Below the pieces are notes generated by a model. That model ran no database searches. It was given only the letters and a program-made list of their open reading frames with translations, and was not told the origin of the DNA. 64,000 nt of DNA from a virus: IMG/VR virus record IMGVR_UViG_3300048592_001404, positions 6,317 through 70,316 of that record; one strand, given 5' to 3'. Both the position numbers and the translations under genes were made by a program. Below, piece by piece: positions 6,306-48,615 of this stretch. Each line of letters opens with the position of its first letter. Within the stretch, counting starts at the first letter, position 1.

Positions 6306-7553
6306 TCAGCCGGTGACCGCGTCGACCTGGGCAAGCAGGTCGTCGAGCAGCGCGTCGAGCGCGGGGCGGTAGCGGGCGGACTGGATACCCAGATACCTGA
6401 GCACCGGCGCCTCCTCGGCGGCGAAGTTGACCGTGAACCTGCCCTGCCGCAGCTCTTCCGGCGAGTTCTGGTCGCGGGTGAACTTGACCTCGTAACCGAG
6501 GATGTCGCCGTCGGCCTTCAGGTCGCGCATGGCGAAGCCCATGGTGTTGAGCACCGCCTGGATGGTCTGGCCGGTGAGATTGAAACGCCCGAGATAGAAT
6601 CGGAGCGTCCGCAGGAACATCAGGTGGATGTAATCGCGCCCGCGGGTGACATTATAGAAGCGCCAGAGATCGTCCTCGCCCGCATTGTCGGTGCCGACAT
6701 AGACAAAGCCGCCGGAGGCGATGGCCGTCTCGACGCCGAGTTCGCCCCTGAGAAGGACACCCACATTATTCGAAAGAAGCCGCTGGCCTTCCGTCGCGCC
6801 ATCGGTCAGCGAGAAATTGATCGGCCGCGAGGGTCCGACAATGCCGGCGACCGGCTGGTTCGCCCAGCTATGGAAGGGGCGTCCCTGCTTCTCGTGGTCG
6901 CGCCTGACGCCAATGCCAATGACGGCGGGGGACAGCGGCATCACCGCTACGTCGCTCCCGGCCATGACGCGGACGGCAGGATCGACCGGGATCAGGCGAC
7001 TTGAGGAAATCGTCTCGCGCCAATCGATGGCGGCCTGTTCCGTGGTGGCGGGCCCGTCCACCACGGCATGGGCGAGAAGCTTGTTGCAGATGGCAGGCAA
7101 CGCTGCGCACACCGCATTGGCATCGGTGCCCGTCCGCTGGCTGGTAAATCCCGGCGCACACAACAGCCTCGGAATGACGCCGAGCAGCGGCCCCGCCTGC
7201 ACGAAGGCCTCGAGGCCGGTGGAGATCCAATCGCCCACGACGTTGGCAATGGTCTCGGCAACGGTCTCCCCCTCCTCCACACGCACCACCACGACCTTGG
7301 CCGCGACCTGGAACTCGCCGAGCTGGGAATTGATCAGGGTCAGCGCGTCCGAGATGGTGCCCTCCGTTCCGAGCGCCGTCCGCTTCGCCGTATCGTCGGA
7401 ATAGAGGAACACCGGCGTATCGAGCGGAAACACCGCCGGATCGGCTTCGGGTGCGGTGCCGATGAGCCCCACCACCGACATGTCGCTGTAGACGGCGGGA
7501 CGCGGCTCGTTGTCGATCCGTGTGATCGAAATGCCAAAGGTTGGATCGGACAT
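6306..7553 (-). CDS. Tail sheath protein (P2 FI-like)
   Basis: MSDPTFGISI...SVVGLIGTAPEAD...FPLDTPV...PRLLCAPGF; start chosen at ATG with GGAG RBS. Confidence 0.92.
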   Translation of the reverse strand: MSDPTFGISITRIDNEPRPAVYSDMSVVGLIGTAPEADPAVFPLDTPVFLYSDDTAKRTALGTEGTISDALTLINSQLGEFQVAAKVVVVRVEEGETVAETIANVVGDWISTGLEAFVQAGPLLGVIPRLLCAPGFTSQRTGTDANAVCAALPAICNKLLAHAVVDGPATTEQAAIDWRETISSSRLIPVDPAVRVMAGSDVAVMPLSPAVIGIGVRRDHEKQGRPFHSWANQPVAGIVGPSRPINFSLTDGATEGQRLLSNNVGVLLRGELGVETAIASGGFVYVGTDNAGEDDLWRFYNVTRGRDYIHLMFLRTLRFYLGRFNLTGQTIQAVLNTMGFAMRDLKADGDILGYEVKFTRDQNSPEELRQGRFTVNFAAEEAPVLRYLGIQSARYRPALDALLDDLLAQVDAVTG

Positions 7554-25311: not shown

Positions 25312-25836
25312 ATGACAAAACTCACCGACACCCAGCGCGTGATCCTCAGCGCGGCTTCGCAGCGCACCGACCGCCTTGCCCTGCCGCTGCCCAAGAGCCT
25401 GAAGGGTGGTGCAGCCCACAAGGTGGTCAACGCCCTGGTCGACAAGGGCCTCCTCAAGGAGGTGAAAGCCAACCGCAAGCTCAACGATCCGGTCTGGCGC
25501 GAGAACGATGATGGTCAGGGACTGACCCTGATCATCACCGACGCAGGCTTTGCGGCCATCGGCATCGAGATCGAACCTCAGAAGCCCAAGAACCAAAGGC
25601 CAGAGCCAAAACCCGCCACAACGGAACGCAAGACCCGCGAGGGCACCAAGCAGGCGCTGGTGATCGAGATGCTGCGCCGCCCAGAGGGAGCGACCATCCC
25701 GGAAATCGTGGAAGCGACCGACTGGCAGCCCCACACAATTCGAGGGGCCATGGCCGGAAGCCTCAAGAAGAAACTCGGCCTCACCATCACCTCGGAGAAG
25801 GATAATCAGAGAGGCCGCGTGTACAGGGCGTCCTGA
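25312..25836 (+). CDS. DUF3489 domain protein
   Basis: REGTKQALVIEMLRRPEGATI..I..ATDWQPHTIRGAMAG.LKKKLGL. Confidence 0.9.
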   Translation: MTKLTDTQRVILSAASQRTDRLALPLPKSLKGGAAHKVVNALVDKGLLKEVKANRKLNDPVWRENDDGQGLTLIITDAGFAAIGIEIEPQKPKNQRPEPKPATTERKTREGTKQALVIEMLRRPEGATIPEIVEATDWQPHTIRGAMAGSLKKKLGLTITSEKDNQRGRVYRAS

Positions 25837-25860
25837 CCACACGGGAGAGACCAGGGAACC

Positions 25861-25896
25861 GACAGAGCCACCAGTCGCGGAACTGGTGGCTCTGTC
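25861..25896. terminator. Perfect 15-bp stem hairpin after DUF3489
   Basis: GACAGAGCCACCAGT-CGCGGA-ACTGGTGGCTCTGTC; no clear U-tract. Confidence 0.6.
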
Positions 25897-25950
25897 AAAT
25901 CAGGGCTGCTGGGTGGTTTACCAGCCCTGATCAATGCTCGAACCTCAATG

Positions 25951-25967
25951 GTTAACGAATCGTTAAC
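25951..25967. promoter_or_regulatory. CtrA-type box TTAA-N7-TTAAC
   Basis: GTTAACGAATCGTTAAC fits the consensus on both strands; intergenic. Confidence 0.6.
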
Positions 25968-26102
25968 GGCTTCAGCCTGCTCCCCGGCTGTTCATGCGAC
26001 AGGTGGACCGCAGCGCGAGGACAGATCCCCCACGAACTTTGACGGCGGGCAAGGGAATGATAGCCTGCCCACCCCGATGATAGGTGCCAGCTGCCCAGGC
26101 GC

Positions 26103-26732
26103 ATGGAGCGACCGCAGATGATCGAACCGATCGCCCGAATCCGCATCTCGCTTCAGGAGACCACCCCCGAGATCTGGCGGCGGCTCGATGTGCCACTCTC
26201 GACCAGCCTCCTGGCACTGCACGACATCATCCAGATCTCCATGGGCTGGACGGACTCACATCTCTTCGCGTTCAATGTCGGGGACCGGCAATACGGCGTC
26301 ACCTATCCCGAATACGACATGGGCGGTCCGCGGGTGTTCCATGCGAAGTCGATGCATCTGAAGACGCTCGTCGGCCGCGGCATCGAGCGCTTCGTCTACG
26401 AATATGACTTCGGCGACAGCTGGCGCCATGACATCCTCATCGAGGAGTGCATGGATGGGCTGCCGGACCGGGACTATCCCTTCTTCATCGGCGGCGAGGG
26501 CCGGTGCCCGCCGGAAGATGTCGGCGGCATTTCCGGCTTCGAGGAGTTTCTCGAGGCGGTCAGGAAACCGCGCCATCCCGAGCACAGGCGGATGCTTGCG
26601 TGGTATGGCAGGCCCTATGATCCACAAGATATCGATGAGCCTCGCATACGAAGGCTGATCGAGGACATGGCCGCCCGGCGGCGGGGCCCGCTGATGAGCC
26701 ATCGCAAGGGAGGCAGAACAGCATCCCCATGA
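26103..26732 (+). CDS. Plasmid pRiA4b ORF-3 family protein
   Basis: IWRRLDVP...LHDIIQ..MGWTDSHL...YEYDFGDSW.H...CPPEDVGG. Confidence 0.92.
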   Translation: MERPQMIEPIARIRISLQETTPEIWRRLDVPLSTSLLALHDIIQISMGWTDSHLFAFNVGDRQYGVTYPEYDMGGPRVFHAKSMHLKTLVGRGIERFVYEYDFGDSWRHDILIEECMDGLPDRDYPFFIGGEGRCPPEDVGGISGFEEFLEAVRKPRHPEHRRMLAWYGRPYDPQDIDEPRIRRLIEDMAARRRGPLMSHRKGGRTASP

Positions 26733-37603: not shown

Positions 37604-39286
37604 TCACGCTGCCGCCGCGAGGCTGGCGCCCTTCGCCTCCGCGATGCGGCTACGAATGGCGTGGAGGTTGAACTTCAGGCTCAGCATGGCGGAGGCCTGA
37701 TAGCGGGTCAGGCTGTAATCCATGCGGCAGGCCGGGGGCAGATACGCAAGCTGCTTGCCCGTCGCGGGCTGGTTCAGCCACCCTTTGGTCTTGTGTGCGG
37801 ACTCGTCTGTCTCATTGGTGTTGAGCCAGTCGTCGGCCGCGGCGAGGCAGGTAATGTTCTCGCCGACACCGAGGAGCAAGGCGGTCTGGTTCTTCGCGCC
37901 GCCAATGGCATAGAAGCGTCCGTCCTCGTTAAAGACGCCGGCCCAGGCCGTGAAGCCGGCGGCCATCATGGCCGAGCCGTCGCCCTGGACGTCGACCCAC
38001 TGGAAGCTGGAGCGTGCCAGCAGGTCGATCTCGGTCATCACGAAGTGTCCGAGCGCCTCAGGCCCGCGATCTTCCCGCTCGCTCTCCCAGACATGACCGC
38101 ACAGCGGGCATTCCATCACAGCGGCGGGAACTTCCGCTTCGCAGAACGGGCATGCCTTGGTCGGCGCGTCACCCGTGGCCTGGCGGCCATCCAGATCCAC
38201 ATCCTGCTCAAGAGAGCCGTGGATGAGGCTGGAGGTGCCGAAGTCGAGGATCACGCAGTCGGTCTTGACCACACCGGGGTATTCGTCCGGGTTCACGGTG
38301 CGCAGGCCACGGCCCACCATCTGGATCATGGTGGACTTGTAGGACGACGGCCGCAGCAGCACGACGCAGGAGGTCGGCGGATGGTCCCAGCCTTCCGTCA
38401 GCACCGCGACATTGGTGATGACCTGGATCTCGCCCCTGTCGTAGGCGGTAAGCGTCGCCTTGCGGTCCGTATCGCCCATGTCGCCATGGACCAGTGCCGC
38501 TGTCACCCCCGCAGCCTTGAAGGCGTCGGCCACGTTGCGGGCATGGTCGACGGTGGAGCAGAACACCACCGTCTGGCGGTTTCCGGCCTTCTCCTTCCAG
38601 TTCTCGATCACCGAGTCGGTGACCGGCGCCTTGTTCATGATGGCATCGACCTCGCCCATATCGAAGTCGGCAGCGACCCGGCGCACCTTGCGGAGCGCAT
38701 CCTGCACGCCAATATCCACCACGAAAGTGCGGGGCATCACGAGGTGACCGGAGGCGATGAGCTCGGCGATGCGAATCTGGTCGGCGACATTGTCGAAGAC
38801 GTCGCGAAGCCCTTGGCGGTCGCCCCGGTTCGGCGTGGCGGTGACTCCAAACACCTTGGCGGACGGGTTGAGCTTCAGGGTGCGGTCAATGATGCGGCGG
38901 TAACTGTCGGCCACCGCATGGTGCGCCTCATCGATCACGAGCAGGTCCAACACCGGCATAGTGTCAAGATTGGACGCGCGCGACAGGGTCGGGACCATGG
39001 CAAAGGTCGCCCGCCCGTCCCACGACTTTTCGTTCGCATCCATCACGGAGGTGGTGATGCCCGGATTGACGCGGGTGAACTTCGAGCGGTTCTGGTCCGT
39101 CAGCTCGTCACGGTGGGCGATGACGCAGGCCTTGGCATCCGGCTCCTTCAGGAGCTCTCCGGCCACGGCCGACAGCATGACGGTCTTGCCGGCCGCGGTC
39201 GGCGCGATGCCGAGCGTGTTGTTGCGGGTGCCGAGCGCAGACAGGCTGCGCTCGACGAAGAGTTTTTGGCGGGGACGGAGAATCAT
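37604..39286 (-). CDS. SF2 DEAD/DEAH helicase with Zn ribbon
   Basis: MILRPRQ, APTAAGKT, DEAHH, TATP, QMVGRGLR, CPFC/CPLC. Confidence 0.92.
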   Translation of the reverse strand: MILRPRQKLFVERSLSALGTRNNTLGIAPTAAGKTVMLSAVAGELLKEPDAKACVIAHRDELTDQNRSKFTRVNPGITTSVMDANEKSWDGRATFAMVPTLSRASNLDTMPVLDLLVIDEAHHAVADSYRRIIDRTLKLNPSAKVFGVTATPNRGDRQGLRDVFDNVADQIRIAELIASGHLVMPRTFVVDIGVQDALRKVRRVAADFDMGEVDAIMNKAPVTDSVIENWKEKAGNRQTVVFCSTVDHARNVADAFKAAGVTAALVHGDMGDTDRKATLTAYDRGEIQVITNVAVLTEGWDHPPTSCVVLLRPSSYKSTMIQMVGRGLRTVNPDEYPGVVKTDCVILDFGTSSLIHGSLEQDVDLDGRQATGDAPTKACPFCEAEVPAAVMECPLCGHVWESEREDRGPEALGHFVMTEIDLLARSSFQWVDVQGDGSAMMAAGFTAWAGVFNEDGRFYAIGGAKNQTALLLGVGENITCLAAADDWLNTNETDESAHKTKGWLNQPATGKQLAYLPPACRMDYSLTRYQASAMLSLKFNLHAIRSRIAEAKGASLAAAA

Positions 39287-39296
39287 AGCTGTTGTC

Positions 39297-39980
39297 TCAC
39301 TTCGCCCAGGTGGGGCGCACGCCAGTGGACGGCGCAGGCTCGGCCTGCTGCGGCGCGTAAGTCGGCGGCTGGGCCTGCGGTGCAGCGTAGACGTGCTGCT
39401 GCTGCGGAGGGGTATAGGCGGCCTGCTGGGGCGGTGCTGAATAGGCAGGCTGGGGCGCGGCATAGACCATGGGCACGGCCACGCCGCCCATCACGGACGC
39501 GTAGTCCTTGTGGTCACGCGTCACCGGCTGACGGATTTCGTTCTTGTCCTCGCCGTTGCTGTCCTTGCCGACGTCGATACGGGCCACGAACTCGATGCCA
39601 TCGAGATCGCCGAGGCCGGAGATCCGGCGGGCGTTCTGCGCCTCCGGCGAGTTGTCCTTGTCGGACAGCCCGCGCGCCGAGTTGAGCACGCCGCGCACGA
39701 AGCCGCGGCCCATGTTGCCCCAGCCCGGGCCGTTGGGGCTGTAAAGGCCGATCATCGACCAGACCTTGCGCTTGGCGTAGGGGCCTTCAAGCACCGTGTA
39801 TTCGACATCGAGATAGACGGAGCCCGTCGAACCGCGGCGAGCATAGCCGCCGGTCCAGCCCTGCGACGGATCGTCAAAGCCACCCGGACGGATGGTCAGG
39901 CGCACCTTGGCGATGGTGCCCTTTGGAATGAGGTTGGAGTTCTGCTTGGCGTCGTTGAAGTCGTTCCATGCACCGGTCAT
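39297..39980 (-). CDS. Phage single-stranded DNA-binding protein-like
   Basis: YTVLEGPYAKRKVW core, P/Q-rich linker, C-terminal RPTWAK; follows AAA_24 gene. Confidence 0.65.
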   Translation of the reverse strand: MTGAWNDFNDAKQNSNLIPKGTIAKVRLTIRPGGFDDPSQGWTGGYARRGSTGSVYLDVEYTVLEGPYAKRKVWSMIGLYSPNGPGWGNMGRGFVRGVLNSARGLSDKDNSPEAQNARRISGLGDLDGIEFVARIDVGKDSNGEDKNEIRQPVTRDHKDYASVMGGVAVPMVYAAPQPAYSAPPQQAAYTPPQQQHVYAAPQAQPPTYAPQQAEPAPSTGVRPTWAK

Positions 39981-39995
39981 GAGTGTTCTCCTGGA

Positions 39996-40892
39996 TCAGA
40001 TGTTGGACTTGGGGTGAGAGGCTGCAGCGGCCGGAGCGACAGGCGCCGGACGGCTGAAGACGAGGCGTTCGATGGGAGAGCGGCCGGGCTCGCCGATCTT
40101 GGCGATGAGGCGCCCGAGGTGGGCTTCCTCGATGACATCGAGGCGGCCCGAGCGATCTTTCGCAGGCAGGTTCAGGGCGTTCAGCGTCTGGCAGACGAAT
40201 ACGCGGTGAAGGACCGTCTGCTCGCCCCTTGTCTCCGCAACCTCCGTCATCGTCAGAACTTCATCGACGATGCCGGGCAGCTCCAAACCGGTCTTTGCGC
40301 CATCGATCTGCGGCACGTAGATCTTGCGGTTGAAGTCATCGAGCTTCTCGTCGAGGATGCCGACGAAGAAGACGTTCTTCACGCGCGTGTGCTGCAGGTG
40401 GGTGATCCAGCCGAGCATCTCGCGGCCATGCAGGCCATAGGCGCCACGGACGTCTTGTTTTCCCGTCTTCTCCGAAAAGGCTTCGGGCTGCTCCTTCGCC
40501 CAGTTGAAGCACAACCGCCCCGCTACCGTGATGGAGTCGATGAACACGGTTTCGTACTTGTCGAGCGCACGCGGGTCGCCGAACTTCGCGCAAGCCTCGT
40601 TGAAGTGACGCTGGCTGTAAGGACGCCCGTCGGGAATGGCGGGGTTCGGACCGCCGATGAACACCGCGAAGTCGCGGCATTCTTCCCAGGTGCGCGGGCG
40701 GATCGTGTCGCCGCTCCACCCCTCGATGGCGAGATCACCAGCTTCGAGGTCGAAGAACAACGTCGTCTCCGGCGGCAGCGTCCAGAGCAGAGAGGTTTTC
40801 CCAATTCCGCTCTTCCCGAAGATCACGGCCTTGATGCCGCGGCGCTCCGAGAGGCGCTGGTCGGCGAGGATGATGGGGAGCACGCCGGTCAT
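39996..40892 (-). CDS. AAA_24 / Sak4-like ATPase recombinase
   Basis: GKSGIGKT, FIDSIT, PAKDRSGRL. Confidence 0.85.
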   Translation of the reverse strand: MTGVLPIILADQRLSERRGIKAVIFGKSGIGKTSLLWTLPPETTLFFDLEAGDLAIEGWSGDTIRPRTWEECRDFAVFIGGPNPAIPDGRPYSQRHFNEACAKFGDPRALDKYETVFIDSITVAGRLCFNWAKEQPEAFSEKTGKQDVRGAYGLHGREMLGWITHLQHTRVKNVFFVGILDEKLDDFNRKIYVPQIDGAKTGLELPGIVDEVLTMTEVAETRGEQTVLHRVFVCQTLNALNLPAKDRSGRLDVIEEAHLGRLIAKIGEPGRSPIERLVFSRPAPVAPAAAASHPKSNI

Positions 40893-41368
40893 GCCGGTTC
40901 CTCACCGATCAGCTCAGCCTCAGCTCCATTGCCGGTCACTGCCGTGTAGAGCGCATCCAGGCGATTGGCCTCGGCAAGGCATTCCAGGCCCTTGCGCCGC
41001 ATGAAGCGTCGCGCATCGTCGAGAAGATCGGGCTCTGCAATGAGGTCCGGGACCGCGACGTATTCTTCAGCGCTTTCGACGAAATAGGACTTCGAGCGCA
41101 GATCGCTGACGAGGGGCGCAAAGGCGTCGCAGCGGTTGGCAAAATCCGTCTGGCGCTCCAGGTCCCGGCGGTTGCGCAGGATCCGCTTCACCTCGGAAAT
41201 GATCCCGGTGCGCAGCATCCGCATCGCCCCTTCCGCGCGGGCCTGCGAACAGGTCAGCGGGAAAGCAGCCTCCATGATGTCATCGGCGATTTTCGGGGCA
41301 TTGTTGCCAAGCTGGGACGCAACGTCCCAGACGCGCTCGGCAAATGCCGCTGATTGACTATCAAGCAT
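40889..41368 (-). CDS. Hypothetical protein
   Basis: MLDSQSAAFAERVWDVA..., AAGGAG RBS, coupled to neighbours. Confidence 0.75.
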   Translation of the reverse strand: MLDSQSAAFAERVWDVASQLGNNAPKIADDIMEAAFPLTCSQARAEGAMRMLRTGIISEVKRILRNRRDLERQTDFANRCDAFAPLVSDLRSKSYFVESAEEYVAVPDLIAEPDLLDDARRFMRRKGLECLAEANRLDALYTAVTGNGAEAELIGEEPA

Positions 41369-42134
41369 CGGACCACTCCTTGATTTTGATGAAACATTCC
41401 GCCCCCTGGGCGATGGCCTTGACGTCGAGGTGGTGAAACGGGCCCGCCCTGGCCTCGCGCATGCCTTCGTGAGCCAGCGCGAGATTGTCGTCCGTGGCCC
41501 ATTCGGCGAAGGCGCGGAACGTGCCGGTGACATGCTGCCAGGCTGCCTGTTCCGGCGTTGGCGGGACGTAGAGCGGGTTCCGGCGGCTGGGCTTGCGCTG
41601 GGGACGCAATCCCCGCATGGCCGCGTCGACGACCATCTTGCGCAGCGCCGCCCGCGTTGGTTCCTCGCCCCGGGCCAACTTTTCATTGAGCGTGCGGCGC
41701 ACGATACCCGGCTCCGTCTTCTCGGCATCGCGAATGAGGCGGGCCTCGTGGATCTCCTTGTGGGTGAGCCCCAGTTCAGCAGCTGTCGCTACTTTCTTCT
41801 CGTCGGGAAGAAGGTCTGTGCGCTGCCCTTGGGCCGAAGCAGTTCCGTTGATGCGGGCCTGGTCGTATTCATCTGCCAGACGCCGCTTCGCCTGTGATTC
41901 AATTGCAAGGGCATCCGCCTGGGCGCGGTGCGCGGCGGCGATCAGCTCATCATGGGCATGCTTCGCATTGGCAAGACGGGCGGCGCGTTTGGCGGCGTCA
42001 TACGCGAACGATGCAACATCCTTGGCCTCGAGCACTTCGGCGGCGGTGCGGGCATTGGCAAGCGCAGCGGCCGCATGGTCGACGAGCTGCAGAAGGCTGC
42101 ATGGCGGATGGTCGATTTTTGCGGGACCGCTCAT
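41361..42134 (-). CDS. Hypothetical helical DNA-binding-like protein
   Basis: 257 aa; GQRTDL and TAAELGLTHKEIHEAR HTH-like segment. Confidence 0.7.
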   Translation of the reverse strand: MSGPAKIDHPPCSLLQLVDHAAAALANARTAAEVLEAKDVASFAYDAAKRAARLANAKHAHDELIAAAHRAQADALAIESQAKRRLADEYDQARINGTASAQGQRTDLLPDEKKVATAAELGLTHKEIHEARLIRDAEKTEPGIVRRTLNEKLARGEEPTRAALRKMVVDAAMRGLRPQRKPSRRNPLYVPPTPEQAAWQHVTGTFRAFAEWATDDNLALAHEGMREARAGPFHHLDVKAIAQGAECFIKIKEWSDA

Positions 42135-42793
42135 GCGTCACCTGCGATCAGCTGGAAGGACTCCCTGCCCGTGCGGACCGTGCGCGCCGGTTCGAACACC
42201 CTGCGGATATGCGGCGGCCAGGCTGCGTACCTGCGCTCGGAAACCTTGAAGGTGATTTCCACGTAATGACGGGGGTCTTCGCCTTCAGTGGTGAGGAGTT
42301 CCACAACTCCGCTGAGGGCGTCCTGATCCCAATCGATTTTCTTCGCGAGGTCGGCCACGACCGTGACGCCGTTGTCGTCGAAGCGGACGGTTCCCGTGTC
42401 CTTGAGGCCGGCAGCGCGTGCTTGATGAACCCTCGCGGAGTAGCGCAGGGACAGCGCACCATCGAGCCATGCAGCCGCGAGCTTCGCCTTGCGCAGCGTC
42501 TCTTCCACCCCACGCTGAAGGCGGGCCAGTTCGCCGGCGGGAAGTGCGGCAATCTCACCGATGGGCGTCCGGACCAGGCGGTCCGGATTGTCGCCCGAGA
42601 GGTCAACAGCAGACGAGCCAGCGTCAGCCTCGCTGAAAAATACGGCCACGAGAGGGGTTCCGTCTGCGTGAGCGCCGGCGTCCTCGATCTGGCAGTTGCG
42701 GTGTTGCTCGAGAACTTCGGTCAATTCCCAGCGGCGGTAGAGGCCGGGGAGGCGCCGCGGCTCTCCGGAAAGGGGTTCGGGGGAAGGGTTCAT
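42131..42793 (-). CDS. Hypothetical early protein, first gene of replication operon
   Basis: KDTGTVRFDD...KKIDWDQ..L...KVSERRYAAWP. Confidence 0.75.
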   Translation of the reverse strand: MNPSPEPLSGEPRRLPGLYRRWELTEVLEQHRNCQIEDAGAHADGTPLVAVFFSEADAGSSAVDLSGDNPDRLVRTPIGEIAALPAGELARLQRGVEETLRKAKLAAAWLDGALSLRYSARVHQARAAGLKDTGTVRFDDNGVTVVADLAKKIDWDQDALSGVVELLTTEGEDPRHYVEITFKVSERRYAAWPPHIRRVFEPARTVRTGRESFQLIAGDA

Positions 42794-42832
42794 GTGGGCA
42801 GGCTTTCCAATTGAGTGGGACGCAACGGGGCG

Positions 42833-42872
42833 TCTGAATGGGAAAAGCCGGGCGGCCTCCCGGATCGGGACA
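42833..42872 (-). promoter_or_regulatory. Candidate phage-sigma promoter, copy 1 (replication operon)
   Basis: TGTCCC-N17-GGCTTTTCCCATTCAGA, 39 nt before ATG 42793. Confidence 0.7.
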
Positions 42873-42877
42873 CGTGC

Positions 42878-43600
42878 TCATGCATTTTTTTCCAGAGCCC
42901 GGCGGAGCCTCTGCGCCGCACGCTGGTAGCGCTTGCGGGCCGCACCTTCGGAGATGCCAAGTTCCACAGCGACTTCGGCCTGCATGAACCCCTCGACTGC
43001 GACCCGGATGACCAGGGAGGCCTCGTCTCCGATGAGCCTGCCCAAATCGGAATGCAGCAGGGCGGAGCTGAGTCGCTGGCCATCAGGTGCCCCGTCGTCC
43101 GGCAGATCGTCGGGAAAAGTGCTGGAGGTGACGCGCTGGCGCTGGGCCTCCCCGCGGCATGCGCGGACCATGTCGCGCTGAATATTTTTCAGGGCGGTGG
43201 CGGCAATCCAGTTCACGCGGCCGAGGTCGAGCCCGCGGAGGGTTTCCGTGGCGCGGGCAAGAATGTCGGAGGTGATTTCGGCGGGGGTGCCGATCCTGAG
43301 TCGGAGGGAACGCCGCCGGACGGCGTCGAGGCCCGGCCAGAGCGCGAGAAGCAGGACCGTGAGCGCAGTGTCTGTTTCAGGTCCGGTGCGATGAGCTTCC
43401 CGCACCAGTGCCTTGAGGCAATCATTCTTGCCGTCAGGACTTCCGGACTGGCGGTGCAGCGCATCAAGCAGGGCCGCCGGGTCACGGAACGGCGCGAGAG
43501 GCGAACAATTCCGGCGGATCAGGTCGAAGCGGCGCTGGAAGGTGAGTGTACGAGAGGAATGGAGAAGATTGTCATGGATCGCGTGCCACGCGAGAGACAT
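42878..43600 (-). CDS. Phage-encoded ECF/sigma70-like factor
   Basis: Region-4 HTH GFMQAEVAVELGISEGAARKRYQRA; region-2-like WIAATALKNIQRD. Confidence 0.75.
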   Translation of the reverse strand: MSLAWHAIHDNLLHSSRTLTFQRRFDLIRRNCSPLAPFRDPAALLDALHRQSGSPDGKNDCLKALVREAHRTGPETDTALTVLLLALWPGLDAVRRRSLRLRIGTPAEITSDILARATETLRGLDLGRVNWIAATALKNIQRDMVRACRGEAQRQRVTSSTFPDDLPDDGAPDGQRLSSALLHSDLGRLIGDEASLVIRVAVEGFMQAEVAVELGISEGAARKRYQRAAQRLRRALEKNA

Positions 43601-43668
43601 CGGACGCCTGCCTTGCGGCCAGGCGTCGGGCGCCTTGTCTTGGCCAGGTCAGGACGTCGCGCGTCTCT
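43593..43668 (-). promoter_or_regulatory. Structured 5' leader occluding the sigma start codon
   Basis: AGAGACG can pair with TGTCTCT spanning the start; inner GACGCCT-G-GCC-GCAA-GGC-AGGCGTC hairpin. Confidence 0.6.
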
Positions 43669-43698
43669 AGGGTTGTGGGGAGGAGGAGGAGTCGGGTG

Positions 43699-43941
43699 TC
43701 AGCGCCTCGGCGCTGACATCTTGTTCAGGCTGCCGCAGCCATGGCACTTTGCCGTGACCGGATAGGCGACCAAATATTCCTGGCAGCTCTTGATCCTGAT
43801 GTGCATCTCCTCGCCCTGGGGGATTCCAAGGAGCTTGCCACAACAATGGCAGCGCCATTCATCCCGCGCCGGCACGCGGCTCTGCCCTCCGGACTTGAAA
43901 CTGCGGCCGTAAGAATATTCGGCTCGGGTCGTCTGCTTCAT
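43699..43941 (-). CDS. Mu Com-like zinc-finger protein
   Basis: WRCHCCGKLL...TAKCHGCGSLN four-Cys pattern; AGGAG RBS. Confidence 0.72.
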   Translation of the reverse strand: MKQTTRAEYSYGRSFKSGGQSRVPARDEWRCHCCGKLLGIPQGEEMHIRIKSCQEYLVAYPVTAKCHGCGSLNKMSAPRR

Positions 43942-44051
43942 GCGCTACTCCTATGGGGGTGAAATGACGTAAGGGCGCGAGGAACCTGTCGGAGAAACAG
44001 CGTGGGCTGCTCCGTCAGGATCTCGACGTTTTGGGAAAGGGCTAGGAGGTC

Positions 44052-44573
44052 TTAGTCGGGGGTGACCGACTCAGGTTTGGGCTTCTTCTTCGGGCGCCAG
44101 CCGGGCGCACCCGCTTCTTGCTTCTTCTTGCGGGCGGTCTCTCGCGCCTCTTTGTAATCCGGCTCGATCGCAGCAAGCTTGTCGACCAAGCCCTGCAGGT
44201 CATAGGTATTGCTCAGGCGACCGCCGAACTCCCCATAGCGCTCATGGCGGGTGAGCAAGCCTTCCTGCTCGAGCTCAGTGAGGTAACGCTGAACCTGCCG
44301 TTCTCCGATTCCGAGGCGGCTGGAGAGCTCCTTCTTGCTGGGGTACGGCTTCCGGCCGGCGTCCCACCAGTGGTCGATGATCTGCAGAAGCACTGCGAGC
44401 TGCGTGGGATTGAGGTGCAGGCGGCGCTGCGCACGCAGCAGGAGCGACGGGATGGAACAATACCCGTGCGCAATCACCTTCGCCCCCCACTTCTCCGACA
44501 GCGGCGACTTGGCCTTCTTCTTCTGGCCATCGACCGCATCTGCTTGATTTTCGGCTTGATTCTGTTTGTCCAT
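44052..44573 (-). CDS. Winged-HTH protein (replication-initiator/DnaD-N-like)
   Basis: GYCSIPSLLL...YPSKKELSSRLGIGERQVQRYLTELEQEGLL...SNTYDL. Confidence 0.8.
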   Translation of the reverse strand: MDKQNQAENQADAVDGQKKKAKSPLSEKWGAKVIAHGYCSIPSLLLRAQRRLHLNPTQLAVLLQIIDHWWDAGRKPYPSKKELSSRLGIGERQVQRYLTELEQEGLLTRHERYGEFGGRLSNTYDLQGLVDKLAAIEPDYKEARETARKKKQEAGAPGWRPKKKPKPESVTPD

Positions 44574-44590
44574 AGTGGTCTCCTGAAGAC

Positions 44591-44686
44591 CTATTTGACG
44601 CTGCTTCGCGCTCGATACAAGGGCTCCCAGGGAGGCGGGTATGTCTGGGGGCAAGAGGTAATTGTGACCGGAAGGCCCAGTCGCAT
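44591..44686 (-). CDS. Putative 31-aa leader peptide
   Basis: AGGAGG RBS, MRLGLPVTITSCPQTYPPPWEPLYRARSSVK*, stop abuts hairpin over downstream RBS. Confidence 0.45.
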   Translation of the reverse strand: MRLGLPVTITSCPQTYPPPWEPLYRARSSVK

Positions 44687-44745
44687 GCGCCTCCTGAAGT
44701 AGGACGTAGCCAACCAGGTTAATTGGAAGTCGTATAACAAGGTAA

Positions 44746-44787
44746 GGCGGCCCCAGTCGTACGTGACTAGGGGGTCTCCTCTTTTTT
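44746..44787 (+). terminator. Plus-strand hairpin with T6, possible end of an antisense RNA
   Basis: CCCCAGTC-GTACGT-GACTAGGGG...TTTTTT, opposite to local gene direction. Confidence 0.45.
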
Positions 44788-44925
44788 GTGGAAATCGTCC
44801 ACAGCAGGTGGGTTCCCCGCAGCTTCCACGGCGCTCCCACACCTTGCAGGGACACTAGTTCCCGCCCGCTCCGGGCGGCATGGCAGGTCAGTTTGGTGCG
44901 GCCATGCTGAATTCGCGTCGATCAT
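44767..44925 (-). CDS. Possible 52-aa ORF
   Basis: CGGAGG RBS then MIDANSAWPHQTDLP...; no recognisable motif. Confidence 0.3.
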   Translation of the reverse strand: MIDANSAWPHQTDLPCRPERAGTSVPARCGSAVEAAGNPPAVDDFHKKEETP

Positions 44926-45095
44926 GATTCCTCCGTTCGTGTTGGAGACGGAGAATGGGCTTTGTGCCGGGCCGCCAAAAGGTCCGTCCCCCGGAGCTAG
45001 AACGTTCTCAGGCTGCGGCCGTACATCTTCCGCACATCACGTACGGTGTGCGCATGGGAAGTGGCGACGTACGATCTCCTGCGGAGACCGCAGTC

Positions 45096-46046
45096 CTATG
45101 CGCGCCACTTTATGCCCGCTTGCTTCGCGTAGCCGCGTATCCAGTCCGCAACGGTCCGCTGCTCCCGCTCAATGCCTTCGTCGCTCAACATGGCGCAGAA
45201 GTGCTTGGCCGCTTTTTCAGCGCTGGGGAACTTGGTGGGGTCCTCCGCGAACCACTCCAGTACCCGGGCTTTGATTTCCCGGTTTTGCTCGTGCCGGACA
45301 TTGTTCCGCGCAGCAGATTGTTCTTTGCGACGTTGAATATCTTTCTCGATAAACTCCGCCCTCACCTGTTCGGCTATCGTCTGCAAACTGGATTCAGCGC
45401 CCTGATCACGCTTCTTCAGTTCTTCGATCTTCTTTTCATATCGATCGGTGAGATCCTCCTTCGCGCGGAGCAACTCGGCTCGTCCCACCGCATCCTGGGC
45501 TCCAATGAGGTTCTCAGCAGCAGCACGATAGTCTGCTGCAGTGAAATCCTTCGGGTCCCGCTTTAGACTTTCTCCACTACTGGAGTCGTATTTGAATTTC
45601 CAATCACGCACAAAGTCATCCAACTTCGAAAGAGCGAAGCAAGCCAAGTATTCGTATTCTCTGACATCCAGCGCTTCGGAACTGGACGGATCGAAGAATG
45701 AGTCCAAGGCCTCCATGAGCGCATCGAGCTCTGAGGTATTCCCTCGGTTACGAATGTCATATTCATCGTATGCGTCACTGTGAATACCGCTGCTGTAGTG
45801 TTCCCCGTCCTCAAAAAGATCAACGCGACCGTCCCGCCGAATTAGATCCTCTAATCTGTCACGTTCGCTGTCGAAAAACACATCAATTGTCGAAGCGACA
45901 TCGCGAGCAATTTCAACGATTTCTTCCCGCGTCCGCCGCCGAACAAGAGAGCGTGCACGCCAAAGAATGCCGTAAGCACTCTGATGAGCTGGCCAGTAAG
46001 GTAACTGGTCGGATGTCGGGTCGAAGTACCTAAACCAGGGTGCCAA
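45096..46046 (-). CDS. Hypothetical protein with C-terminal HTH-like segment
   Basis: 316 aa, TTG start with GGAGG RBS, coiled coil then FPSAEKAA...QRTVADWIR. Confidence 0.8.
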   Translation of the reverse strand: MAPWFRYFDPTSDQLPYWPAHQSAYGILWRARSLVRRRTREEIVEIARDVASTIDVFFDSERDRLEDLIRRDGRVDLFEDGEHYSSGIHSDAYDEYDIRNRGNTSELDALMEALDSFFDPSSSEALDVREYEYLACFALSKLDDFVRDWKFKYDSSSGESLKRDPKDFTAADYRAAAENLIGAQDAVGRAELLRAKEDLTDRYEKKIEELKKRDQGAESSLQTIAEQVRAEFIEKDIQRRKEQSAARNNVRHEQNREIKARVLEWFAEDPTKFPSAEKAAKHFCAMLSDEGIEREQRTVADWIRGYAKQAGIKWRA

Positions 46047-46191
46047 CTCATACCTCCATAGGCCCGGATTTCTGCGGCCACGAGAGGTAGAGTAGCCGAG
46101 ATATTTCGGGGTTGAAAAGAGCGCCTATATCAATCCGGAGGTGGGCCCGTATTCGTCAGCGCACATTTTCCTGCGGGGCCGACGGTGGCGA

Positions 46192-46231
46192 TGTCCCGTA
46201 ATAGCTTAGCGGATGGCTTTTCCCTTTCAGA
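46192..46231 (+). promoter_or_regulatory. Candidate phage-sigma promoter, copy 2 (recombinase operon)
   Basis: TGTCCC-N17-GGCTTTTCCCTTTCAGA, 38 nt before ATG 46270. Confidence 0.7.
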
Positions 46232-46269
46232 TACGCCCAGTCCTTCTGGGTTTCTGATGGAGGCCGCCA

Positions 46270-46479
46270 ATGGAACGCCCGAACCCCCTCGACCCAGCCC
46301 GCATGACGCCCGCCGAACGCCTCGCCGAACTCGGCCGCACTCTCGCGGCTGGGTTCATTCGCATGAAGGCCCGCCAGTCCAGTCCTTTATCTGCTGACCG
46401 GGGAGAGAGTTCCGTCGACTTGTCCCCGCCACAGAGCGGTCATGCAACCCGCAACTCAGATAGAGGCATGACACGATGA
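46270..46479 (+). CDS. Small hypothetical protein preceding DUF2924
   Basis: PNPLDPARMTPAERLAELGRTLAAG; GGAGG RBS; ATGA coupling. Confidence 0.75.
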   Translation: MERPNPLDPARMTPAERLAELGRTLAAGFIRMKARQSSPLSADRGESSVDLSPPQSGHATRNSDRGMTR

Positions 46480-46919
46480 CTGATGCAGTACTGGCGCGGC
46501 TAGCCGCATTGAAGACCACCCCGACGCCCAAGCTGAAGGAGCAGTGGCGGCAATTGTTCGAGCGCGAGCCCCCCGCCTTCAACCGCCGTTACCTTGAAAG
46601 CCGCCTCGCCTACCGGATCCAGGAACTGGCCTATGGCGGCCTGAAGCCGGAGACGGTGCGGCGGCTGGAAAAGCTCGGCGAGGAACTGGACGGCGGCAGC
46701 AAGGCGAAGCGGCAGACGCGGGCGGACAGCAGGCCGATTTCCGGGACGCGCCTGATCCGGGAGTATCAGGGCGTCGAGCACTGCGTCACGGTGCGGGACA
46801 ATGATTTCGAATATCAGGGGCGACCCTACAATTCCCTTTCGGCAATTGCGCGAGCCATTACCGGCACGCAGTGGAACGGGGTAGTCTTCTTTGGGTTGAA
46901 ATCCGGGAGGCGCGCATGA
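46476..46919 (+). CDS. DUF2924 domain protein (candidate recombination directionality factor)
   Basis: LAYRIQELAYGGL...GTRLIREYQG..H.VTV...SLSAIARAITGTQWNG..FFGL. Confidence 0.92.
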   Translation: MTDAVLARLAALKTTPTPKLKEQWRQLFEREPPAFNRRYLESRLAYRIQELAYGGLKPETVRRLEKLGEELDGGSKAKRQTRADSRPISGTRLIREYQGVEHCVTVRDNDFEYQGRPYNSLSAIARAITGTQWNGVVFFGLKSGRRA

Positions 46920-48235
46920 CCAAGCCAGCTGCCCGAAAGTTTCGCTGCGCCGTCTACACCCGCAAATCTTCCGAGGAAGGTCTCGAGCAGGAGTTCAACA
47001 GCCTCGACGCCCAGCGCGAGGCCTGTGAGGCCTACATCGCCAGTCAGCGCTCCGAGGGCTGGGTGCTGGTGCGCGGCCATTATGATGATGGCGGGATTTC
47101 CGGCGGCACGCTAGACCGCCCTGCCCTCCAGCGGCTCCTTTCCGACATCGAGGACGGCCTCATCGATGTGGTCGTGGTCTACAAGATCGACCGCCTGTCG
47201 CGCTCGCTGATCGATTTTTCCAAGCTGGTGGAGGTCTTCGACCGGAACAACGTGACCTTCGTGTCCGTAACCCAGAGCTTCAATACCACCACCTCCATGG
47301 GGCGGCTCACCCTCAACATCCTGCTGTCCTTCGCCCAGTTCGAACGCGAGGTGACCGCCGAGCGTATCCGCGATAAGGTTCGCGCCAGCCGGATGAAGGG
47401 GATATTCATGGGCGGCACCCCGCCCTACGGCTACAAGCCGAAGGACCGGAAGCTGGTGATCGATGAAGAGGAAGCCAAGAACGTCCGCTGGATCTTCGCG
47501 CGCTTCCTCGAGATTGGCTCCGCCACGGAACTGGCGCGGGAGGTGTCGAAACGCGGCATCCGCACGCCGCGCGGCAACCCCATGAGCAAGAACTTCCTCT
47601 ACCGGATGCTGAACAACCGCGCCTACATCGGCGAGGCCGTCCATAAGGGCACAGGCTATGCGGGAGAGCACGAGCGCCTCATCGACCAGCGGACATGGGA
47701 GCAGGTTCAGTCCATCCTGCAACAAAGTCCCCGCCTCCGCGCCAGCAATACGCGTGCAGAGACACCGGCCCTGCTGAAGGGCCTGCTCTTCGGGCCGGAT
47801 GGTGCCGCCTTCTCGCCGACGCACACGCGCAAGGGCGACCGCCTCTATCGGTACTATGTCAGCCAGACAGTTCTGAAGCATGGCGCAGGCAAATGCCCCG
47901 TGGCGCGTGTGCCCGCCGCCGAGATCGAGGCCGCCGTCATCGGCCAGATCCGTGGCATGCTGCGCGCGCCGGAAGTGGTTATGTCCACTTGGCGGACGGC
48001 ACAGCCAGAATGTGAGGGCCTCGCGGAAGATGAGGTGCGCGAGGCTTTGGCTGCACTCGACCCGCTCTGGTCTGAACTCTTCCCTGCCGAGCAGGCCCGT
48101 ATCGTCCAGTTGCTGATCGAGCGCGTGGACATCGGCACAGATGGTCTGAGACTCAGGTTCAGAGACAAGGGGCTGGCGCAGATGGTGACGGAGGTCGGCA
48201 TTATTACCGGCAAGAGCCGAAAGGCGGCGGCATGA
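46916..48235 (+). CDS. Large serine recombinase (integrase)
   Basis: CAVYTRKS catalytic motif, YDDGGISG, VYKIDRLSRS, recombinase domain. Confidence 0.95.
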   Translation: MTKPAARKFRCAVYTRKSSEEGLEQEFNSLDAQREACEAYIASQRSEGWVLVRGHYDDGGISGGTLDRPALQRLLSDIEDGLIDVVVVYKIDRLSRSLIDFSKLVEVFDRNNVTFVSVTQSFNTTTSMGRLTLNILLSFAQFEREVTAERIRDKVRASRMKGIFMGGTPPYGYKPKDRKLVIDEEEAKNVRWIFARFLEIGSATELAREVSKRGIRTPRGNPMSKNFLYRMLNNRAYIGEAVHKGTGYAGEHERLIDQRTWEQVQSILQQSPRLRASNTRAETPALLKGLLFGPDGAAFSPTHTRKGDRLYRYYVSQTVLKHGAGKCPVARVPAAEIEAAVIGQIRGMLRAPEVVMSTWRTAQPECEGLAEDEVREALAALDPLWSELFPAEQARIVQLLIERVDIGTDGLRLRFRDKGLAQMVTEVGIITGKSRKAAA

Positions 48236-48615
48236 CAGAACAGACCACTACCGTCATGGTGCCATTCGCCATCCGCAAGCGAGGCGGACGGAAGATTGTC
48301 ATCACGCCGGACGGCACCGCGTCGACGCCGGCACCAAGGGCACGGGTCGATAGCGCCCTGCTCAAGGCTCTCGCCCGCGGCTTTCGCTGGCGCAAGCTGC
48401 TGGAGACCGGCGACTACGCCACCATCCAGGAAATCGCTGACGCGGAGAACATCAACTCATCCTACGTCAGCCGCGTGCTGCGCATGACGCTGCTGGCGCC
48501 GGAGATCGTGGAGGCCATACTGGCCGGGCGGCAGCCGGAGGGGCTGACGATGGCGCGGGCGATGCAGGCATTTCCCAATGTCTGGGCCTACCAACGAAAG
48601 GTATGGCACTTGTAA
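48232..48615 (+). CDS. Recombinase-associated HTH protein
   Basis: RKRGGRK...LKALARGFRW...YVSRVLRMTLLAPEIVEAILAGRQP. Confidence 0.85.
   Translation: MTEQTTTVMVPFAIRKRGGRKIVITPDGTASTPAPRARVDSALLKALARGFRWRKLLETGDYATIQEIADAENINSSYVSRVLRMTLLAPEIVEAILAGRQPEGLTMARAMQAFPNVWAYQRKVWHL

Follow-up and report, generated by a model that had tools for sequence, protein, structure and literature searches.

A candidate early-control module with an RNA-locked sigma factor and two cognate promoters in a widespread family of alphaproteobacterial prophages

How is induction controlled in a prophage that carries no canonical cI/Cro pair? This question is raised by a stretch of 64,000 nucleotides (nt), here called the window, that covers positions 6,317 to 70,316 of the IMG/VR provirus record IMGVR_UViG_3300048592_001404 (record length 70,316 bases). 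Its tail, baseplate, and terminase genes lie on the minus strand and are followed first by a cargo stretch and then by blocks for replication and for the serine recombinase. A preliminary description of the locus had found no cI/Cro pair between the last two blocks, and hidden Markov model searches of the whole 70,316-base record agree: Peptidase_S24, HTH_19, HTH_31, and Phage_CI_repr (PF00717, PF12844, PF13560, and PF07022) gave no match at E<=1, and HTH_3 (PF01381) appeared only below threshold (16.2 bits) within a LysR cargo gene. With none of these repressor families in the record, there is no canonical cI/Cro pair. What the minus strand does carry there is, in order, a gene for a 316-amino-acid (aa) protein, 507 nt of noncoding DNA, an HTH_36 gene, a gene for an 80-aa zinc-ribbon protein, a 98-nt leader, a gene for a 240-aa sigma-like protein, a bipartite motif, and the replication operon. 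All parts of the preliminary list (a helix-turn-helix gene, a four-cysteine zinc finger, a structured leader, a sigma-like gene, and two opposed motif copies) are present at the coordinates given in Table 1, as judged from open reading frames, sequence, and Pfam. Based on evidence that is computational throughout, we somewhat favor the explanation that these parts form an early-control module in which an RNA-locked sigma factor serves two cognate promoters behind two successive gates.

The comparison rests on 160 related loci, 80 of them genomic (Rhodobacterales, Hyphomicrobiales, and other alphaproteobacteria) and 80 from viral contigs, in which the presence of genes was scored by tblastn. 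Roseobacter sp. MED193 (L026), Paracoccus aminovorans HPD-2 (L060), Devosia enhydra ATCC 23634 (L022), and Rubellimicrobium thermophilum DSM 16684 (L010) are among their sources. Relatives were recovered by alignment-based scans, and a further scan brought up virtually the same set of viral-contig loci; single-sequence scans of viral contigs with the sigma or the zinc-finger protein returned no relative. The zinc-ribbon gene lies just upstream of the sigma gene in 150 of the 160 loci, and downstream of it follow a gene for a 220-aa protein (154 loci), an AAA_24 gene (142), and a helicase gene (107). About 3 kb upstream on the opposite strand we found the DUF2924 gene in 117 loci, a small open reading frame in 115, the recombinase gene in 111, and an accessory gene in 99. 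A 159-aa gene was detected with an in-frame query in 14 of the 160 loci. These comparative data across relatives mean that the arrangement did not come about by chance, and the co-occurrence of the parts in related prophages, including the conserved leader and the motif behind the sigma gene described below, is well borne out. Hundreds of viral contigs carry the sigma family, as do genomes of Rhodobacterales, Hyphomicrobiales, and other alphaproteobacteria; a tblastn search of 50,697 deposited phage genomes with the sigma gave no match.

The strongest part of the argument comes from the bipartite motif. An inverted 17-mer at 42833-42849 and 46215-46231 (16 of 17 positions identical) is part of a 40-nt element, TGTCCC-N17-GGCTTTTCCCWTTCAGA, of which the window contains one copy on each strand, P_rep and P_rec; the copy behind the sigma gene reads TGTCCC-N17-GGCTTTTCCCATTCAGA. 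P_rep begins 5 nt past the stop codon of the sigma gene, with its end 39 nt ahead of the ATG of the replication operon (42793), and P_rec ends 38 nt ahead of the ATG of the 69-aa open reading frame that heads the recombinase operon. There are only these two perfect copies in the 64-kb window, and both face outward, to the replication operon and to the DUF2924/serine-recombinase operon; a looser form of the pattern has a mean of 1.9 matches per shuffle (30 shuffles). When relatives were scanned for TGTCC[CT]-N16-18-GGC[CT]TTT, the motif was found directly behind the sigma stop codon in all 160 loci, with 56 distinct spacer sequences, and at most 150 nt upstream of the small open reading frame in 103 out of 115 loci where this frame is present, with 64 distinct spacers. 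The spacer is exactly 17 nt long in all 263 copies at these two main sites. An additional copy deeper in the replication operon, located in the gap between AAA_24 and the gene that follows it, at about +2232 from the sigma start, occurs in 69 of the 160 relatives (L005-L061 and others) and is absent from the window; beyond these three sites, the 160 loci hold no further copy. It is the combination of constant boxes, constant spacing, a free spacer sequence, and a steady aim at an operon start around 40 nt away that makes the motif promoter-like.

Sequence changes in the second box link the motif to the sigma protein. A separate alignment-based scan for distant sigma relatives gathered 13 loci with a sigma at most 41% identical to that of the window, and the box after the sigma gene is GCGTTT instead of GGCTTT in 11 of them, with TGTCCC retained (TGTCAC in L226). 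On the recombinase side the box is likewise GCGTTT in five of the six of these 11 loci that have such a copy, and one locus is mixed; of the remaining two distant-sigma loci, one retains GGCTTT and the other has no motif. Since the second box covaries with the sigma clade at each of two distinct sites, the motif is tied to the sigma and not to the variable early proteins. We infer that it acts as a dedicated promoter read by this sigma, which would then quite probably drive both operons as a cascade. The mixed locus, L233, has a box of the GCGTTT type on the sigma side and GGCTTT on the recombinase side, which suggests recombination between clades. Separately, a near-perfect third motif in the window, TGTCCG-N17-GGCTTTT at 34682-34643 on the minus strand and preceded by GT as in the family consensus, lies inside a 903-aa AAA_25 primase/helicase-like gene about 600 nt ahead of its stop codon and could be an internal sigma-dependent promoter. 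Among contigs from public sequencing runs, a 261-nt metatranscriptome contig maps with one difference to 42817-43077 and thereby covers the 3′ end of the sigma gene and P_rep, though it does not reveal strand or start and may stem from DNA carry-over; the other parts of the module have no RNA cover among these contigs, which is uninformative.

The 240-aa protein resembles sigma factors of the extracytoplasmic function (ECF) type. Pfam recognizes region 4 (Sigma70_r4 at 24.8 bits with a cut-off of 24.1; Sigma70_r4_2 at 27.4 bits with a cut-off of 25.7, residues 194-233), and a profile built from 25 family members matches the ECF factor SigL of Mycobacterium tuberculosis (6dv9_F) over both domains, with query residues 84-238 aligned to chain residues 15-172 at E 6.4e-6. 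The AlphaFold model has a mean predicted local distance difference test (pLDDT) score of 70, and all 48 Foldseek matches listed (ranks 1-50 with gaps) are sigma factors, the best with E 2.2e-3 and template modeling (TM) scores around 0.2-0.3. The family is large and uniform, with 713 homologues at E<=1e-3, nearly all of exactly 240 aa, and matches to 1,424 clusters at E<=1e-3 in a 50%-identity library; its first 83 or so residues form an extension that is conserved and specific to it. Similar to group 4 ECF sigmas, the protein would have a sigma2-sigma4 architecture, as suggested by profile and fold matches to SigL, SigE, and SigH, and its presumed promoter is likewise bipartite with a 17-nt spacer. 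It differs from them by the N-terminal extension, by scores below the curated ECF cut-offs, and by the lack of an adjacent membrane anti-sigma gene. We therefore regard the protein as putatively ECF-like and do not place it in any curated ECF group.

Production of this sigma appears to be controlled at its messenger RNA. The leader between the zinc-ribbon and sigma genes folds into two hairpins (Table 1), and the AGG ribosome site lies in the 3′ arm of the long one, which continues through the AUG. A set of 50 loci, dereplicated at 92% identity, gives a mean pairwise nucleotide identity of 0.93 over the 72 nt before the sigma AUG compared to 0.71 in the sigma coding sequence and 0.83 in the zinc-ribbon core, and the third codon positions of the flanking genes are much less conserved than the leader, which is retained even in the distant sigma clade. 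Among 40 diverse sequences, 92.2% of cells are paired, compared to 21-46% when the partners are slid by one to three columns. Compensatory changes occur at five pairs, one of them, in the short hairpin, being AU in 20 sequences and GC in 17, and the covariation score was not attained in any of 500 shuffles. In 89 closer sequences, the pair adjoining the AUG is UA in 42, CG in 33, UG in 6, and something else in 8. The tetraloop keeps the GNRA form in most variants (GCAA, GUAA, GUGA, GCGA, GAAA, and GGAA). Folded alone, the leader has a z-score of only -2.1, and Rfam has no match at E<=1 in 42500-46600. The pairing pattern points to a long hairpin that would block translation of the sigma, and it is fairly likely that the leader acts as a translational lock on it. 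Many contigs stop about 100-260 nt from the sigma start, as if near-identical copies of leader and sigma break assemblies.

The replication operon downstream of P_rep encodes the 220-aa protein (phrog_2480), a 257-aa protein, the AAA_24 ATPase, a 227-aa protein (phrog_2300), and a DEAD/ResIII helicase. In the recombinase operon, which includes a match to phrog_14161 at 5.9e-42, the DUF2924 gene is followed by a recombinase with Resolvase, Recombinase, and zinc-ribbon recombinase domains, as characteristic of a DUF2924-linked operon, and in 99-117 of the 160 loci it is retained in an orientation divergent from the early operon. Some genomes carry two or three copies of the module (L034, L035, and L058; L045, L047, and L049; L009 and L073). 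The prophage phiPam-6 of Paracoccus aminophilus, which is described in PMC3925955 as mitomycin-inducible and equipped with a serine recombinase, may belong to the same family.

Table 1. Coordinates of the module and its neighboring features in the window
Feature	Position	Strand	Basis or remark
P_rep, TGTCCC-N17-GGCTTTT plus 10 further shared bases	42833..42872	-	motif search
P_rec, second bipartite copy	46192..46231	+	motif search
240-aa ECF-like sigma factor with ~83-residue N-terminal extension	42878..43600	-	Pfam, profile, Foldseek
Leader between zinc-finger and sigma genes, 98 nt	43601..43698	-	conservation, fold, covariation
Near-invariant leader core	43672-43601	-	
Short 5′ hairpin	43668-43651	-	
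Long hairpin with GNRA tetraloop	43634-43596	-	encloses AGG ribosome site and AUG (43600-43598)
80-aa zinc-ribbon protein, two CxxC pairs	43699..43941	-	open reading frame, alignment, AlphaFold2
178-aa winged-helix protein (HTH_36 / DnaD_N)	44052..44588	-	Pfam HTH_36 2.1e-13, DnaD_N 2.2e-12
Noncoding region upstream of HTH_36 gene	44589..45095	-	alignment with L006, L019, L153
316-aa protein, lower-GC stretch	45096..46046	-	inserted between P_rec and HTH_36 module
Replication operon downstream of P_rep	37604..42793	-	PHROG, Pfam, synteny
Recombinase operon	46270..48615	+	Pfam, PHROG, synteny
69-aa open reading frame heading recombinase operon	46270-46479	+	
DUF2924 gene	46476-46919	+	Pfam DUF2924 2.5e-52
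Large serine recombinase	46871-48235, probable start 46919	+	Pfam Resolvase, Recombinase, Zn_ribbon_recom
127-aa accessory protein	48232-48615	+	

Put together, these parts would constitute the early control of a widespread alphaproteobacterial prophage family that integrates by a DUF2924-linked serine recombinase. The early operon would end in the zinc-ribbon gene, the conserved RNA leader, and the gene of the ECF-like sigma, which in turn would guide host RNA polymerase to the TGTCCC-N17-GGCTTTT promoters. P_rep behind its stop codon would fire the replication operon and the oppositely facing P_rec the recombinase operon, and production of the sigma would commit the element to replication and recombinase expression jointly. 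The first gate would be transcription of the early operon, from a promoter that is overlapped by a host LexA box in most relatives and that in the window would respond to a different input built around the HTH_36 winged-helix protein. The leader RNA would serve as the second gate, with the long hairpin sequestering the ribosome-binding site and the AUG. Such a hairpin would need an opener, and the co-transcribed zinc-ribbon protein would be the most economical candidate by analogy with Com and mom of phage Mu. The preliminary description had drawn a cascade from a Com-like zinc finger via the RNA leader and a phage sigma to the replication and excision operons, and its later steps are supported: the sigma would head two outward-facing cognate promoters, and the leader buries the sigma start, both features being conserved, with covariation, in at least 160 loci.

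Several observations speak against this account. The sigma assignment draws on modest scores, with Pfam region-4 matches barely over the cut-off, no Pfam match to region 2, and a TIGR02937 (sigma70-ECF, NCBIfam) score of 26.3 bits that falls short of the 42.9 cut-off, and the curated ECF models are not reached. The leader is nearly invariant, so that a few pairs carry its covariation, in sequences that are related to one another; a pair of the stem (columns 61-73) is unpaired in 20 of 40 sequences, and in the window itself a pair near the stem base (43628/43602) is mismatched as C-C, a position at which G-C is found in 87 of 89 sequences. Neither Com nor any solved fold is significantly similar to the zinc-ribbon protein, and its core is only about 40% identical between variants next to an almost unchanged leader, which is not obviously expected of a tight protein-RNA pair. 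Finally, the window has no LexA box, so that the input of the relatives cannot be transferred to it, and its HTH_36 protein might function simply as a repressor, or else as an initiator of replication. As a consequence of the basal mismatch, the lock may be weaker in this particular element.

The last of these points concerns the first gate, for which the relatives differ in their first early gene: 97 of 106 encode a protein of about 700-770 aa without known domains at this position, and 9 encode HTH_36. Alphaproteobacterial LexA is reported to recognize GTTC-N7-GTTC (PMC8565304 and PMC3323433). The reverse complement of this site, GAAC-N7-GAAC, lies in 73 of the 106 relatives at a constant distance of 26-30 nt to the P_rec box, in 29 different box sequences and against a background expectation of 0.003 per 200 nt. 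Given a LexA box at the early promoter of so many relatives, host LexA likely keeps the operon off there, and we consider it the most likely repressor in the box-bearing elements. The window belongs to the rarer HTH_36 type, of which none of the nine loci has a LexA box. Its own stretch 42500-46600 contains no exact box, and one-mismatch boxes are at chance level (3 compared to 1.8 expected). In this variant, the conserved part of the early operon begins with the HTH_36 gene, and the proximal 260 nt or so of the noncoding region ahead of it are common to HTH_36-type relatives (L006, L019, and L153) and presumably carry the early promoter and operator. A scan for E. coli-type sigma-70 promoters found no site in 42700-46400. 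Upstream of the HTH_36 gene we also noted a terminator-like hairpin with a T run at 44769-44783 on the plus strand, antisense to the HTH_36 leader, and, further upstream, a 10-bp palindrome, AGAACGTTCT, at 44999-45008.

These features leave room for a repressor of an unrecognized family that silences the early promoter, be it HTH_36, the 316-aa protein, or the plus-strand DUF3489 protein (25312-25836), in which case the sigma cascade would be the early-to-middle step of a normal switch. We take this possibility seriously, at a likelihood well short of even. The winged-helix protein HTH_36 is of a DNA-binding type, has weak GntR/HutC-like matches, and occupies the slot of the presumably LexA-controlled first gene of the relatives, and the conserved stretch upstream of it would suit an operator. 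Yet its gene is co-oriented with the zinc-ribbon and sigma genes and directly upstream of them, so that a repressor made in the lysogen would share a transcript with the activator unless the two were separated by a terminator or the RNA lock, and its best family matches are replication initiators (replication-initiation and O-like PHROGs at 1e-11; PADLOC gives only weak winged-helix matches). HTH_36 could also be an activator. The 316-aa gene lies divergent from P_rec in a typical position of lysogeny genes but is absent from all 160 related loci and hence cannot be the switch of the family. Its protein has no Pfam, PHROG, NCBIfam, or PADLOC family, and the gene recurs with the same neighbors and 22 differences on a 2,640-nt estuary metagenome contig. 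For a 749-aa protein and the 316-aa protein, the ESM Atlas gave unnamed clusters only and PADLOC nothing, and BLASTP revealed no similarity of the HTH_36 and 316-aa proteins to the large early protein. As to the third candidate, the DUF3489 and PRiA4_ORF3 genes at 25312-26732 sit between the late block and the early block but in the opposite orientation (plus strand), a spot typical of genes expressed in lysogens, and the DUF3489 protein shows a weak winged-helix hint.

The word "repressor-less" of the preliminary description applies only in part: a canonical repressor is indeed missing from the record, but 73 of the 106 relatives carry the LexA box and HTH_36 of the window could be a repressor. 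The same two facts weaken its further proposal that lysogeny is kept by translational silencing of a positive regulator instead of a repressor. That silencing alone maintains lysogeny is improbable in our view, and the translational lock looks like a second gate rather than the sole mechanism.

How this second gate would open depends on the zinc-ribbon protein, which varies in its N-terminal third and has a conserved core rich in beta structure (residues ~27-80). Ten residues are invariant (W29, R30, C31, C34, L37, L38, G39, C66, C69, and N73), and the four cysteines, invariant in 22 sequences, form two CxxC pairs in a small protein as in Mu Com. The protein has no significant Pfam, PHROG, or NCBIfam family. 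AlphaFold2 predicts a small beta structure for the core (pLDDT 83-92) for which Foldseek found no match in the PDB at E<=1e-3 (best 0.41, to ribosomal zinc ribbons) and a wide VIA-align search reached a best Z of 2.5. The label "Com-like" in the preliminary description is not supported in the sense of family membership: Pfam Zn_ribbon_Com (PF10122) scores 10.4 bits (E 0.45) against a cut-off of 22.9, and hhalign with Com as annotated in the Mu record aligns, at a probability of 25.9%, 20 columns around RCxxCxKLL, a local motif that the first finger of Com and the zinc-ribbon protein share. What the two systems have in common is placement, with the gene upstream of a target whose start sits in an inhibitory hairpin preceded by a short one. 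On the strength of this analogy, we tentatively suggest that the zinc-ribbon protein may open the leader hairpin.

About as doubtful is the alternative that the zinc-ribbon protein is a partner of the sigma (anti-sigma or co-factor) or a DNA-binding protein, with the hairpin being opened or used by a host factor, processing, temperature, or a small RNA. ECF sigmas are often paired with small zinc-binding partners, which would suit this idea, as would the lacking similarity to Com or RNA-binding folds and a core that diverges next to a leader that does not. The protein has no HxxxCxxC anti-sigma motif, though, and the invariant W29 and R30, aromatic and basic, beside the first CxxC would suit nucleic-acid binding. 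Moreover, gene order and the two-hairpin leader match the Com-mom layout as far as it is laid out in PMC6483171. Structure prediction for a complex of the sigma and the zinc-ribbon core yielded no verdict (score 0.00), and we draw nothing from it.

Two further alternatives have little probability. The bipartite motif might be an operator of a sequence-specific DNA-binding regulator or an RNA-level element instead of a sigma-read promoter, given that the 17-mer shared in the window reaches beyond a usual -10 element and that its boxes, TGTCCC and GGCTTTT, differ from the commonest ECF promoter type, GGAAC / CGTC. This is hard to reconcile with two invariant boxes at an unvarying distance around a free spacer, always aimed at an operon start, with a second box that shifts with the sigma clade, and with a motif that is unchanged in loci with a different first early gene. 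Similarly improbable is that the near-invariant leader works as DNA (replication origin element, recombination site, or promoter) and not as a translation-blocking RNA, because despite its extreme nucleotide conservation, a heptamer (CCTGGCC) repeated in two copies, and the many assemblies that break beside it, the substitutions that do occur preserve base pairs, the loop remains GNRA in most variants, the stem ends at the start codon, and the recombinase genes are 2.6 kb distant.

The two-gate module with its RNA-locked sigma, which we continue to favor, has partial counterparts in known systems. SigN (ZpdN) of Bacillus subtilis plasmid pBS32 is likewise an element-encoded master switch of the sigma-70 family, and its main promoter is described as repressed by host LexA, with DNA damage leading to sigma-dependent expression of element genes and hyper-replication (PMC6751061), comparable to what the LexA boxes suggest for most relatives of our module. 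The differences are that the same account attributes a SigN-dependent promoter of its own to SigN, whereas no cognate motif is seen upstream of the sigma gene here; that, from what it describes, SigN works in a gram-positive host with neither a zinc-ribbon gene nor a structured leader; and that, unlike the reported SigN targets, those proposed for the module include a serine-recombinase operon and the window lacks a LexA box. Mu Com-mom resembles the module in encoding a small zinc protein with four cysteines immediately ahead of the target gene and, as presented in PMC6483171, in a mom translation start that lies in an inhibitory hairpin with a short hairpin before it. In contrast to Com, an extra beta-hairpin widens the distance between the fingers of the zinc-ribbon protein, its gene does not overlap that of the target, and the target is a sigma factor instead of a DNA-modification enzyme; binding of the leader by the zinc-ribbon protein would follow by analogy only. 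Phage GIL01 is similar to the box-bearing relatives in being temperate without a dedicated phage repressor and having its early promoter silenced via LexA boxes (PMC6182141). However, according to this source, it is a linear plasmid prophage of Bacillus that needs the co-repressor gp7 and activates its late genes by a LexA homologue and not a sigma, and the window is again set apart by having no LexA box.

A broader generalization, which we put forward as speculative, is that of a portable commitment switch in which the zinc-ribbon protein unlocks the RNA-locked sigma, the sigma alone fires both operons, and the sensor at the front is exchangeable. With the same reservation, this sensor would be the LexA box with the large protein in most elements and the winged-helix module here. 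If true, it would place a Com-type translational activator over a master transcription factor and allow a lysis-lysogeny decision without an element-encoded repressor in most members of the family.

Our literature searches found no description of this module, and what we add here are the covariation of promoter and sigma, the covariation of the leader RNA, and the recognition of the window as an input variant without LexA box. Such a module would help to explain why the control region escapes repressor-based tools in these prophages, and it would provide an orthogonal pair of sigma and promoter that is compact and comes with a translational lock. Our reading makes predictions for promoter boxes, stem mutants, and LexA binding that can be tested. 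If it is true, a large share of alphaproteobacterial prophages would use a switch unlike the textbook cI/Cro pair, running from a host or modular sensor via an RNA-locked sigma to dedicated promoters.

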